From: Candidatus Micrarchaeota archaeon
GTDB lineage: Archaea > Micrarchaeota > Micrarchaeia > Micrarchaeales > CABMGC01
DNA: 37,267 nt
Assembly: GCA_021809925.1 (NCBI GenBank)
Contig: JAJZJV010000004.1
Location: 1-37,267, forward strand
Direction: 5' to 3'
Position 1 is the stretch's first letter, and each line of letters begins with the position of its first letter. Below the pieces are notes generated by a model. The model did no database searches, had not been told where the DNA came from, and saw nothing but the letters and a program-made list of their open reading frames with translations. The position numbers and the translations under genes are program-made. This document shows, piece after piece, positions 23,238 to 27,377 of this stretch.

Positions 23238-23708
23238 ATGAGCGAAGTAATAATCAATGGTTTGATTGAGGGAGGGAAGGCGACAAACGGGCCCCCTTTT
23301 GGACCTGCTCTGGGGCCTCTCGGGATAAATATCAATAACGTAGTCAGCGAGATCAACTCAAAGACTGCAGCTTTTGCAGGAATACGCGTTCCGGTCAAGG
23401 TGATTGTAGAGACCTCAAACAAGAGCTTTGTTGTTGAGGTTGGATCCCCACAGACAAGCGCCCTAATAATGAGGGAGCTTGGCATACAGAAGGGAGCAAA
23501 AACGAAAGAGGAGGTTCCTGGAGACATAACAATGGAGCAGGTAACAAAGATTGCGAAATCTAAGGAAGCATCCCTCTATGGAGAATCACTTAAGGATAGA
23601 GTAACTCAGGTCCTTGGAACATGCGTCAGCATGAATATAACATGCGAAGGAGGAAGCGCAAAGGAAGCGATAAAGAAAGTTAAGAAGGGAGAGATTGAAG
23701 TTAAGTAG
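23238..23708 (+). CDS. rpl11: 50S ribosomal protein L11 (uL11)
   Basis: EGGKAT.GPP.GPALGPLG, G..VPVKV.V, EVG.P.TSALI..ELG..KG, V.GTC.SM. Confidence 0.98.
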   Translation: MSEVIINGLIEGGKATNGPPFGPALGPLGININNVVSEINSKTAAFAGIRVPVKVIVETSNKSFVVEVGSPQTSALIMRELGIQKGAKTKEEVPGDITMEQVTKIAKSKEASLYGESLKDRVTQVLGTCVSMNITCEGGSAKEAIKKVKKGEIEVK

Positions 23709-23755
23709 TTCTTGACCAATACCATCCTATCCTTCTTTCTCTCTTCTTTAACTCG

Positions 23756-23871
23756 TAGAGTTCTTGGAAAAGATCTCAATATATGTTTTCTTGTCTCATT
23801 ACATATGCGATTAGGTGTGTTATCTAAGGATATTGAACTTGACGAGGAGATGTAATGTACATCTCAACTCC
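23756..23871 (-). repeat. About 116-bp dispersed repeat, copy 2
   Basis: Reverse complement aligns with 15264-15381. Confidence 0.85.
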
Positions 23872-23880
23872 TTAATGGGA

Positions 23881-23920
23881 GATAATGGGACTGGAATAAA
23901 TTCGTTTGGAAAGATTGGGA
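23881..23920 (+). pseudogene. Remnant of the 3' end of another B-type membrane gene
   Basis: 32/40 nt identical to 24649-24688. Reads DNGTGINSFGKIG versus NNGAGIN*FGDIG. Confidence 0.6.
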
Positions 23921-23998
23921 ATAATAATCATTAGTTTTGTCTGCCCCAAACCTTGATGCAGATTGGCTTTTTATTACTTGCTTTCCTCAGTTAAGAGG

Positions 23999-24732
23999 AT
24001 GGACAAAAGAACAGAGCTTTATATTGCGAAAAGATACGTTGCATTTGTTTTTGCGATGTTGGCAGTGTTAGGTTATCCTGCGACAATGTTTTTTGAGGTA
24101 AAACAAAGAAACCTTCTTCTTTTGGAAGTAATAATATTTATCATCGGAATAGGCATAGTGGCGTACATAGCTAGGAGTAGGAAGAAAAACAGTAGTAGGG
24201 AATTAAGGAAGCAGATCCGAACCATTGCCTTTCTGTTAGCAATAGACACTGCGCTTCAGTTCTTTTGCGTTGTTCTTACGATACACCTTGCCGTCTTTGT
24301 AGACATGATCTACATAACTGTAGGATTTATGGCAGTGATATTAAACTTAGTGAGCGGAGAGGCGGTGAATTCATTCATGAGCAGGCATTTGCCCGACTCT
24401 GCCAGAAAAAGAGCATGGACTTACATGATTATACTGCTTTTATTATCGAATGTGGCTGCAGTTAATAGGGATATAAGTAATCCAAATGTGATAATCCCGA
24501 TAGATGAAATTATCATAATACTTGTATCATTTGTTCTACTCTGGCTTGTAAGGTTCGTATCATTATCAACGAAGAAAAGGTTGGTTAAAAGAGACAGATG
24601 GATTGCCACGCTTGTATTGTTTGGGCTGTATTCTTGTTTGATATGATAAATAATGGAGCTGGAATAAATTAGTTTGGAGACATTGGAGGCCTCATTACCC
24701 TGGGATTGATGCTTCTAACTGTTTTTATGTAA
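23999..24732 (+). pseudogene. In-frame A+B membrane protein pair (paralogs of the 393-2582 array), 3' frameshift and stop
   Basis: A part: IAKRYVAF...RELRKQ...AVILN. B part from ATG 24377: HLPDSARKRAW...VNRDISNP. Frameshift near 24615; the alternative frame reads IVWAVFLFDMINNGAGIN*FGDIGGLITLGLMLLTVFM* with TAG at 24670. Confidence 0.75.
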
Positions 24733-24756
24733 ATCGCAATTTTGAGGTACTGCTGT

Positions 24757-24772
24757 AACAATATATAAATAC
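24757..24772 (+). promoter_or_regulatory. TATA box upstream of the single-repeat TBP gene
   Basis: AACAATATATAAATA about 40-50 nt upstream of ATG 24811; GAGGGAG immediately before the ATG. Confidence 0.55.
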
Positions 24773-24810
24773 CTTTACTCAAAAGCTTAAATTGGGTAGA
24801 GAGGGAGTAT

Positions 24811-25155
24811 ATGGCTGCTAATCCAAAACAAAAGAAGGGCATTGCACTTCATCCTGATTTTAAGATAGAGAATATAGTAGCCAGTGCTGACCTTGGAGTT
24901 GATCTTGACCTTTATGGAATAGCTAAGGTTTCAACAGATGTTGATTATGAGCCTGAGCAATTCCCTGGAGCGATATGCAAGATCCATGAGCCTAAGACAG
25001 CTTTGCTGCTCTTTAAGAATGGCAAGATAATTTGCACAGGGGCAAAGACAGAAGAGGATATAAGAAGGGCAATAGATCAGGTAATAAAGATAGTGAAGAA
25101 CTTTATCCTGATGCAAAATCAGCCGAAGCCAAAAAAAGCAAGCAGATCGAAGTAA
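24811..25155 (+). CDS. tbp: TATA-binding protein with only one TBP repeat
   Basis: KIENIVASADL, DYEPEQFPG, PKTALLLFKNGKIICTGAK..EDI..A. 114 aa, whereas canonical TBP is about 180 aa with two repeats. Confidence 0.93.
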   Translation: MAANPKQKKGIALHPDFKIENIVASADLGVDLDLYGIAKVSTDVDYEPEQFPGAICKIHEPKTALLLFKNGKIICTGAKTEEDIRRAIDQVIKIVKNFILMQNQPKPKKASRSK

Positions 25156-25181
25156 TATGCACTGTGTCGTGTAAAGCATTA

Positions 25182-25409
25182 TCATAATTCTTTATTCGGT
25201 AGCCACTTCCATAATGGAACAAGTGCTATTTTCTTCCCTTCTGTTACAATACTACCATCATAATCCCACATGACTATGAGGAGATTCTTGCATCTCAGTT
25301 CTTTAGAAGCCATTACTAGCGATGTTATTTCCCTGTCTTCAATTGCTTCGCGGCTTGTTGCGTAAGTAGCTTGGATTAGCTTAGTGATTTCTCTACCTTC
25401 CTTAATAAC
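25182..25409 (-). pseudogene. C-terminal fragment of an AAA_14/DUF4143 ATPase paralog
   Basis: VIKEGREITKLIQATY...REITSLV.ASKEL....IVMWDYDG...LVPLWKWL aligns with the C-terminus of 26079..27377. No start codon or ATPase domain upstream. Confidence 0.85.
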
Positions 25410-25461
25410 CTAACCTCGCCAAATGTGATTCCTACCTCTAATCCTAATGCGTGATGCAGTT

Positions 25462-25502
25462 CGCCAAAACGATTTTACCAGCGCAGATTCAGGTCTTTTG
25501 TA
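25462..25502 (-). repeat. 41-bp perfect inverted repeat, left copy
   Basis: Reverse complement TACAAAAGACCTGAATCTGCGCTGGTAAAATCGTTTTGGCG is identical to 30379-30419. Confidence 0.92.
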
Positions 25503-25831
25503 CCGTATTTATCCAGAAAATCACCGAATATTCTCAGTATTTGAGGAGAAATGTTGCTGACAGGGGTGAATTTGAAGGCATTATCCGACTTTACAATGGT
25601 CACTGTCAAATTTATCAGGGATTTTTTGAGTAGCTTTACATTCTTGTCGATGGAAATCTTCGCAGAAAACAGTGTCTAGACTATCACAGATGTGTTGTGC
25701 CACAAGACGGTAATTGACAAGGTCTGAATAATCCACAATAAAAGCAATACGCCAGATTAATTAAAACTTTTTAAAGTATCCGTGTACCTCAAAACGACAT
25801 CTATTATATCACATCACAAGGGAAATATTAG

Positions 25832-25881
25832 TGGACTCGGCGGGATCGCGCCAGCGACCTCCAGCTTGCAAAGCGGACGCT
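25832..25881 (-). pseudogene. Degenerate 3' two-thirds of tRNA-Ala(TGC) (att-like scar)
   Basis: AGCGTCCGCTTTGCAAGCTGGAGGTCGCTGGCGCGATCCCGCCGAGTCCA: anticodon loop TTTGCAA and Ala-type 3' end CGAGTCCA. T loop is decayed and the 5' acceptor strand is missing. Confidence 0.7.
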
Positions 25882-26032
25882 TCAAGCTTTTGCCGTCGTT
25901 TTCTCTAGCCATTCAAGCCACCGTAGATTTTATTTTTGTTTAATGCGAACATCTGTGTTCCGCACACAGATTATAGCGCGTTTAGAAATATAAACAGATA
26001 CGGTGCAAATCTAGCCGTAACCGCACCCAGTG

Positions 26033-26063
26033 TTTTTGATGAAGCTTTTCGTAAAAAGGTTTC
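26033..26063. repeat. Short palindromic dispersed repeat, copy 2
   Basis: TTTTTGATGAAGCTTTTCGTAAAAAGGTTTC, similar to 12680-12707. Confidence 0.55.
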
Positions 26064-26078
26064 ACATATTCCCCCTTC

Positions 26079-27377
26079 TTATGTCAGGGCCCATTCCCAG
26101 AACGGCAGATACACTATCTTTATTCCATCTACATTTTCACTGCCATCGTAATCATAAGTAATTATGATTCCTTCCTTAAGTTTAAGCGCCTTTGCAGCTT
26201 CAACTAACGCTGAAGTTTCCCTGCCTTTTACATCAATGCTAGAAAGTTCATAACATACTTGTATTAGTTTAGTAGGTTTCCGACCAACAATGAAATCAAT
26301 CTCCTTACCAGATTTCAGTTTTAGATAATAAATATTGTCTGATACTTTTTTTCTTCTGAGCAACTCGATAAACACCGCATTTTCAAGTGCCCTGCCCTTG
26401 TCTATATCTGTAAATAATTTTGATAATCCAACATCAACAATGTAACTCTTTACTTGCCTGGCAAAACGCTTTCTCGGGCTTTTTAAGTATTGTTCCAAGA
26501 TTTCAGCAAAGAATACGGATTTAGAGTATTCTAAAAAATTAAGAATTGTAACCCTGCTAATCTCAAAACCCATACTGTTGAAATAATTCTGGGTCTTTGT
26601 TGAGCTGAAATACGTTGAATAGTTACTAGCAAGTATCTTAAGGAAAATGTTTAATGCTCCAGTTTCCCTCAAGTTATACCTCTTTATTATGTCCCTAAAG
26701 AATATTGCGTCAAAGTACGATGATAAAAGATCCATTTTTCTTGTAGTATTATTTGAAAGTATAACTTCTGGAAAAGAGCCGTATTCAAGAAATTCGTCTA
26801 GTGCTTTTAGTACAGTACCTTTCTTTGAAGAAAATTTTATACTGCTCATTCCTGCGGTTATACCTCTCGATTTTAGCATCTCGCTAAAAGAGAATGGATA
26901 AACAGTATAGGAAAGATTTCTGCCTGCAAGCGCTGTTGCTATTTCGCTGCTAAGTAGCTCTGATGACGACCCCGTTATTATAATTCTGTACTTCTTAGTG
27001 TCGTATACCTTCCTTATCCATTTATCCCAATTCTCCACGTTTTGAATTTCGTCTAAGAACAGATATACGATTCCCCCTATGGGATTAAATATTTGCGAAT
27101 GTGCGATTAGAAGATTATCCATGTCTGTTGCTTTAGTAGCTATTAGGCGCTCATTCTCAAAATTAACATAAATAATATTGTCTTTTGTTACCTTCCTTTT
27201 CATTAGCTCTTTAATGTGCTGAAACATTAAGCTTGTTTTACCAGAACGCCTTACACCAGCAATGACAATTACTTTATCTGCGTCTAAATCTAGCATAATT
27301 TTCCTTTCTATGACTTCTGGGAGTTTCATCTCTTTCCAGAGAGTAAGCACATACTTAAAGTCATCAATTCTAGCCAT
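26079..27377 (-). CDS. AAA+ ATPase, AAA_14/DUF4143 (COG1373) family with wHTH and C-terminal nuclease-like fold
   Basis: GVRRSGKTS, YVNFENER, LFLDEIQNV..W, ITGSSS, L.GR, YPFSF.E, G.FPE, ENAVF.EL, EIDF...LIQV. Confidence 0.95.
   Translation of the reverse strand: MARIDDFKYVLTLWKEMKLPEVIERKIMLDLDADKVIVIAGVRRSGKTSLMFQHIKELMKRKVTKDNIIYVNFENERLIATKATDMDNLLIAHSQIFNPIGGIVYLFLDEIQNVENWDKWIRKVYDTKKYRIIITGSSSELLSSEIATALAGRNLSYTVYPFSFSEMLKSRGITAGMSSIKFSSKKGTVLKALDEFLEYGSFPEVILSNNTTRKMDLLSSYFDAIFFRDIIKRYNLRETGALNIFLKILASNYSTYFSSTKTQNYFNSMGFEISRVTILNFLEYSKSVFFAEILEQYLKSPRKRFARQVKSYIVDVGLSKLFTDIDKGRALENAVFIELLRRKKVSDNIYYLKLKSGKEIDFIVGRKPTKLIQVCYELSSIDVKGRETSALVEAAKALKLKEGIIITYDYDGSENVDGIKIVYLPFWEWALT

Follow-up and report, generated by a model that had tools for sequence, protein, structure and literature searches.

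A stand-alone gene for a single-repeat TATA-binding protein in a Candidatus Micrarchaeota archaeon

An intact gene for a TATA-binding protein (TBP) with exactly one TBP repeat was found in a small DPANN archaeon of the Micrarchaeota type, whose 907,647-bp, 48-contig assembly (GCA_021809925.1, 93% complete) yields no two-repeat TBP. The same state is seen in most of its class: about 111 of 148 class genomes with a TBP match carry only single-repeat genes, and 68 of them, two closed genomes among them, carry just one repeat. The most likely reading, held with fairly high confidence, is that the protein is a working TBP subunit which dimerises to form the DNA-binding saddle, so that the long-proposed dimeric ancestor of this transcription factor could be studied in a living lineage. 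The gene lies in the interior of the stretch analysed here, referred to as the window (contig JAJZJV010000004.1, positions 1 to 37,267, forward strand; contig C5 of the assembly). The window had previously been examined from its letters and open reading frames alone. The observation made in that sequence-only reading, an intact single-repeat TBP gene with its own promoter, is borne out by the present analysis. Its interpretation is supported only in part, as described below.

The ORF encodes 114 aa from an ATG start to a TAA stop. A Pfam search finds the TBP profile PF00352 once, over profile positions 1–85 of 85 (residues 16–98), with E 4.8e-30 and 103.7 bits against a cut-off of 22.9. The protein thus belongs to the TBP domain family, but it does not show the two tandem repeats in one polypeptide that characterise canonical TBP. 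Against solved archaeal TBPs it aligns about equally to both repeats (81.0 and 78.0 bits for 2z8u; 71.4 and 70.6 bits for 1pcz), and the match to the M. jannaschii TBP chain 2z8u has E 4.7e-46. The motifs named in the sequence-only reading are all present: ENIVAS at residues 20–25, YEPEQFPG at 46–53, LLFKNGK at 66–72 and TGAK at 76–79. By analogy to the yeast and archaeal structures, N21 and T76 correspond to the minor-groove Asn and Thr, and F51 and F68 to the two intercalating Phe; all four are invariant in 40 of 40 aligned orthologues, as is the stirrup Y46–G53, which includes the acidic YEPEQ that binds TFB/TFIIB in TBPs. L13 and F17 are at least 90% conserved. The basic tails noted at both ends are real in this copy, although among orthologues only the N-terminal tail is consistently basic and the C-terminal tail varies in length and charge. 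The suggestion that the lead-in KKGIALHPDF marks a second repeat is not supported, since it resembles both the N-terminal lead-in and the inter-repeat linker of the nearest two-repeat relatives.

No second repeat lies near the gene. A full-sensitivity profile scan of all six frames of window 23701–26100, with stops read as X, gave only this repeat and one noise match with a negative score. In the whole genome only two PF00352 matches were obtained at E<=1, this one and an intact, unlinked 103-aa ORF on contig C4 (G000:C4:66968–67279 (-), where G000 is the window's genome; L002:1489–1800 (-) in the fetched locus). The two proteins, designated A (window) and B (contig C4), are 51% identical over 92 residues. 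TFB is single and intact in the genome, with two cyclin repeats in one 373-aa frame.

Table 1. Positions of the A gene, its upstream elements and neighbouring features in the window.
Position	Strand	Feature	Remarks
23963–24646		227-aa membrane-protein-like ORF between L11 and the TBP gene	No Pfam match
24760–24771	+	TATA-box-like element AATATATAAATA	Core TATATAAATA at 24762–24771; about 40–50 nt upstream of the ATG
24764–24776	+	Extended motif TATAAATACCTTT	TATA box plus proximal ACCTTT
24786–24793	+	Second AT-rich box CTTAAATT	Near the expected transcription start; role inferred only
24801–24807	+	Purine-rich SD-like motif GAGGGAG	3 nt before the ATG
24811–25155	+	Gene for single-repeat TBP subunit A	114 aa including basic tails
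24838–24858	+	Lead-in segment (residues 10–16, GIALHPD) before strand S1	Predicted to pack on helix H2 of the partner
24856–25104	+	TBP repeat proper	Residues 16–98
25156–26078		No long ORF	
25405–25676	.	Repeated element of ~272 nt, not part of the gene	Copies elsewhere in the genome
26079–27377	-	AAA_14 plus DUF4143 ATPase gene	E 4e-38 and 2.9e-17

Upstream regions of 85 related loci were lined up by eye on the start codon. The TATA-like box followed by ACCTTTCA recurs almost unchanged in most of them, across many genera, even though synonymous sites of the gene are saturated between the same genomes. A counterpart of the second AT-rich box (ATTTAAATAG or TTTATAAA) is seen at about -30 to -15 in most of these regions, whereas at the place of the SD-like motif, whose match to the anti-SD sequence is presumed, the orthologues mostly have GTGGT or GTGAT. 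The strong conservation of TATAAATACCTTT first raised the idea of a TBP-specific, autoregulatory operator. This was dropped, because the motif has two exact copies in the genome and 12 sites with at most one mismatch, upstream of unrelated genes; the core TATATAAATA occurs 31 times and TATAAATA 163 times. TATAAATA(C/T)(C/T)TTT lies 11–47 nt (motif start to start codon) upstream of the 10 assorted ORFs found downstream of the 12 sites (for example C27:16725, C4:46419 (-) and C29:20058 (-)). It thus appears to be the general strong promoter consensus of this organism, and many of these genes would then have very short leaders.

The surroundings of the gene are less conserved. The order Spt5-L11-(membrane protein)-TBP is found only in the same genus (loci L013, L014) and not in the other 78 loci fetched for comparison, so that gene neighbourhood says nothing about function. 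The membrane-protein-like ORF is missing in the same-genus relative L014, where L11 lies closer to the TBP gene, and contigs of other strains diverge from the window exactly at 24643; it is probably a strain-specific insertion. The ATPase gene is found next to the TBP gene only in the window's own contig among the loci compared. The repeated element downstream has copies of about 96% identity on contigs C29 and C19 and weaker ones on C19 and C9 (blastn), and summed contig depth is very high there in other metagenomes. It looks like a small mobile or repeated element.

A truncated gene call, a recent deletion, a pseudogene or a mis-assembly of an ordinary two-repeat TBP could in principle account for the gene. 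Whether close relatives carry a two-repeat gene at this locus, with no purifying selection or expression, had been set beforehand as the condition that would overturn the observation. The 80 nearest loci, from 80 MAG contigs of several projects, were fetched, and 79 hold one repeat in an open frame of 94–206 aa; the exception, L054, has a partial second repeat because the gene runs into a contig end. The same 114-aa product occurs in a cluster of 4 member sequences, all 114 aa, on 24 contigs in total, and the cluster of B has 7 members, all 103 aa. Contigs from public metagenome runs of other studies cover 24643–25120 and 24643–25165 with 12–13 differences and diverge from the window just outside these limits, indicating that promoter plus ORF travel as a unit in different surroundings. 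These contigs are DNA; among the 10 runs that contain the stretch no RNA run was listed, and no expression data were found. A few close relatives do have two-repeat versions, namely four database proteins (P0001–P0004) and genome G021, whose gene is cut by a contig end. In view of the above, of the absence of any vestige of a second repeat and of the strong purifying selection described below, an artefact is extremely unlikely.

Selection was assessed by Nei-Gojobori counts on the 82 core codons. Between A and its same-genus copy dN is 0.005 and dS 0.039 (ratio 0.14). Between A and the listed orthologues of other genera pN is 0.03–0.06 against saturated pS of 0.67–0.90. For B and its orthologues pN is 0.10–0.16 and pS 0.6–0.9, and against the B copy of genome G002 pN is 0.011 and pS 0.755. 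Both genes are under strong purifying selection.

The distribution of TBP repeats was then examined. In the 41 genomes of the order, every TBP match lies in a frame of about 100–185 aa, apart from one of 274 aa with a single domain, and where there are two matches they are on different contigs or far apart. In the family of the window (f1, 25 genomes in this survey), 15 genomes have A and B, 7 have A only, G021 has a tandem A cut by a contig end, and two show only B. The latter, G002 (72% complete) and G007 (88% complete), are likely to reflect incompleteness, although this cannot be proved. Five A-only genomes, the closed G020, G005 (3 contigs, 97% complete), G022, G012 and G013, were searched again at E<=10 and still only one repeat appeared in each. 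In the class survey described below the closed G119 also has one match at E<=0.001. One f1 genome (G100) has, beside an A-type gene, a divergent two-repeat TBP (locus L111, G100:C77:653–3695; 191-aa frame, repeats only 40% identical, very long branches) on a 3.7-kb contig, which may be mis-binned or derived from a mobile element or virus.

In the class, 151 genomes at least 80% complete were sampled. One repeat in the whole assembly was found in 68, two or more repeats not in one frame in about 43, a tandem two-repeat gene in about 37, and no match in 3. Of the tandem cases 29 were seen directly and eight (G072, G077, G087, G096, G145, G166, G140, G148) were assigned by family only, and for several of the unlinked cases only one of the matches was seen. 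Most of the genomes are MAGs and only a few are closed. The order and class counts include one unpublished genome (G038, two matches on separate contigs), on which no claim rests alone. Paralogue expansion is not limited to the window's order, as family f8 genomes have 1–3 single-repeat genes and one 1.18-Mb contig (G065:C1, loci L145–L147) carries three unlinked ones, two of them identical in the repeat core. In the sister DPANN phylum Iainarchaeota, 50 of 51 genomes (G169–G219) have the ordinary tandem gene. The remaining one, G175, has a single high-scoring repeat (100 bits, G175:C38:27624–27869) in a 90-aa frame and no tandem gene, and could be an independent case or a misplaced genome. 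The single-repeat state as the only TBP is thus a trait of Micrarchaeia.

To understand the relationship of A and B, repeats were cut out with an HMM built from the data, aligned in 82 columns and used for IQ-TREE LG+G4 trees, a quick one with 157 rows and a careful one with 124 rows. All repeats of families f1 and f3 form one order-specific clade (99 SH-aLRT in the quick tree; 100/99 in the careful one). B forms a well-supported clade (98; 100/98) on a long stem of about 0.5, nested inside the A diversity of the order (SH-aLRT 98–99, UFBoot 100). A, the f3 A-type and B share residues that every other group lacks, namely SADL, Asp instead of Glu before Tyr-Glu-Pro, and Thr after TG.., the other groups being the other single repeats, the N and C repeats of tandem genes, and the Iainarchaeota N and C repeats. 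A and B were at first taken as the two halves of a split gene, but these results favour B as a lineage-specific paralogue that arose by duplication of an already single-repeat gene in the ancestor of the order. The alignment is short, however. An AU test rejects the grouping of B with all N repeats only marginally (p 0.035), a value further weakened because both groups tested were named after the first tree had been seen, and it does not reject the grouping of B with all C repeats (p 0.184).

Tandem forms look secondary in several places. The two repeats of P0001–P0004 (195–196 aa), natural A-A fusions and the closest database proteins, differ at few positions and form one clade (93/89) inside the A-only subclade, which shows that two A-type repeats make a viable TBP. 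In G074 (family f7) the N and C repeats are sisters (94/95) inside the f7 single repeats (97/96), and in f14 the N and C groups are sisters (99/89) next to the f6 singles. Identity between N and C repeats is 49–85% in tandem Micrarchaeia TBPs and mostly 51–60% in Iainarchaeota. Either repeated tandem duplication and fusion or gene conversion would produce this pattern; either way, one-chain and two-chain forms seem interchangeable in this class.

A saddle needs two repeats, and in relatives with only A the partner can only be another A, unless a very divergent TBP-fold partner has escaped the Pfam profile. A complex model was made for the A homodimer only, with the 40-row alignment. It scores ipSAE 0.66 (runs 0.65, 0.68, 0.66) against a best control of 0.01; in the calibration of the method the mark was reached by 20 of 30 proteins solved as pairs of one chain and by 1 of 23 solved as single chains. 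The runs share at least 85% of contacts and partner pLDDT is at least 81. The predicted interface is symmetric and involves residues 10–30 of both copies, with antiparallel pairing centred on 22:22, together with 74–75 and helix residues 81–99. This is the arrangement of S1/S1' and H2/H2' within ordinary TBP, and the score may therefore simply reflect likeness to solved TBP structures, in which the same interface is intramolecular; it shows compatibility and not binding. The interface strand FKIENIVASADLGV is identical in the consensus of A genes from genomes with B and without B, and A2 is therefore taken to be a working TBP in this organism too.

Of the three options offered in the sequence-only reading, the homodimer thus gains support. 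The second, a split TBP with its partner encoded elsewhere, is half right, since a second single-repeat gene does exist. An obligate A-B heterodimer, forming an asymmetric saddle like the N and C repeats of ordinary TBP, remains possible but is considered unlikely. In its favour, both genes are intact, unlinked and under purifying selection, and B keeps the Asn, both Phe, the Thr and the YEPEQFPG stirrup, and is present in 22 of 22 sampled f3 genomes (21 of 21 without G038) as well as in the 15 f1 genomes, which may mean that where B exists the working form is A-B; the AU result with C repeats also leaves room for it. Against it, B is missing from the 7 f1 genomes that keep A, including closed or near-closed ones, so A is inferred to be self-sufficient in near relatives, and the interface residues of A do not differ between genomes with and without B. 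The trees and shared residues likewise argue against B as the complementary half. The third option, a dominant-negative regulator, has no support, as both proteins keep the DNA-contact and stirrup residues and no full-length TBP was found for either to poison. An accessory role more generally, for example as a non-transcriptional DNA- or RNA-binding protein with basal transcription run by something else, is very unlikely. Single TBP-domain proteins of unknown or non-essential function are documented (PMC3597702), and about 30 of the 51 Iainarchaeota genomes carry beside their normal TBP a weak extra single TBP-like ORF of 20–32 bits in frames of about 94–155 aa (for example G171:C1:531657–531857). 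However, neither this genome nor most genomes of the class have a full-length TBP to regulate, A keeps every functional motif unlike the diverged accessory proteins, and its promoter has the general consensus shape.

In the favoured view, two A subunits would assemble side by side through their first β-strands (S1 against S1', antiparallel about Ile22), with the lead-in of each packing on helix H2 of the other, thereby rebuilding the ten-stranded saddle that ordinary TBPs form from two covalently linked repeats. The dimer would bind and bend the TATA box through Asn21, Phe51, Phe68 and Thr76 of each subunit and recruit the single TFB of the organism through a YEPEQ stirrup. As A2 would have two identical stirrups, promoter direction would be set by the BRE-TFB contact, as is already held for archaea. 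B, which differs in TGSN for TGAK, VVSADLH for VASADLG and other positions, is probably an alternative subunit forming B2 or A-B dimers. The sequence, its conservation, its distribution across genomes, the purifying selection and a dimer model that passes its controls are what the analysis itself establishes, whereas dimerisation in the cell, binding and bending of DNA, TFB binding, support of transcription initiation and the predominance of one or other dimer are inferences from these.

A wider reading is somewhat more likely than not: across most of the class Micrarchaeia the only TBP would be a one-repeat protein working as an exactly symmetric homodimer with two TFB sites, a living version of the proto-TBP postulated for the origin of the archaeal and eukaryotic initiation machinery. 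The class would also have switched repeatedly between the single-subunit, paralogous-subunit (A plus B) and re-fused tandem states, replaying the duplication-fusion step several times. That the single-repeat state is a primary relic which was never fused is very unlikely. TBP is the textbook case of a pseudo-symmetric protein thought to descend from a homodimer, but a literature search (including PMC3597702, PMC4910066, PMC8407392, PMC12917281, PMC7289017 and PMC5501381) found no description of a lineage whose only TBP is single-repeat, although it did not extend to subscription papers, such as the original ARMAN genome papers, or to supplementary files, which may bear on novelty. The one paper found to mention both Micrarchaeota and TBP only scores TBP as present (PMC8407392). 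If these proteins are the sole TBPs of Micrarchaeia, natural proteins could be used to ask whether a symmetric saddle binds TATA boxes in both orientations, whether BRE-TFB alone sets promoter polarity, what linking or diversifying the two halves adds, and how easily the architecture toggles, at least three tandem forms here looking like recent re-duplications. In addition, single-repeat TBP calls in DPANN genomes should not be dismissed as truncated genes.

Single TBP-domain proteins as such are already known. TbpA of Halobacteria (Brindefalk et al. 2013, PMC3597702) is likewise a single TBP domain that clusters by sequence with real TBP repeats, but it co-exists with several full-length TBPs and is not essential, whereas no two-repeat TBP was found here at E<=1 and the state is fixed across most of a class. 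The monopartite TBP-domain proteins of Thermococcales (82–136 aa, same paper), whose function is unknown, also have one TBP-like fold, but are strongly diverged from TBP and sit beside a normal TBP; the weak extra ORFs of Iainarchaeota look more like them than A does. The hypothetical homodimeric proto-TBP of the duplication-fusion model (PMC3597702, PMC4910066) is a one-repeat subunit that would form a symmetric saddle, as is proposed for A. The state seen here is nevertheless probably secondary and not a relic, although the polarity of change is not settled: the sister phylum has the tandem form, which is generally the rule in other archaea, and tandem and single forms interconvert within the class. 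Canonical archaeal TBP (one chain of ~180–200 aa; for example 2z8u, 1pcz, 1ais/1d3u and 1mp9) shares with A the domain family, the DNA-contact and stirrup motifs and, by prediction, the inter-repeat interface. It differs in that A has one repeat per polypeptide, so that the saddle must be built from two chains and, if homodimeric, would be exactly and not pseudo-symmetric; the tails of A are basic, while many archaeal TBPs have an acidic C-terminal tail. The A-A fusions P0001–P0004 of the same family are 76–80% identical to A over one repeat and, like the tandem TBPs of other Micrarchaeia families, hold two repeats in one chain; the close likeness of the two repeats in P0001–P0004 and their position inside the single-repeat A clade suggest recent tandem duplication and fusion, or gene conversion.
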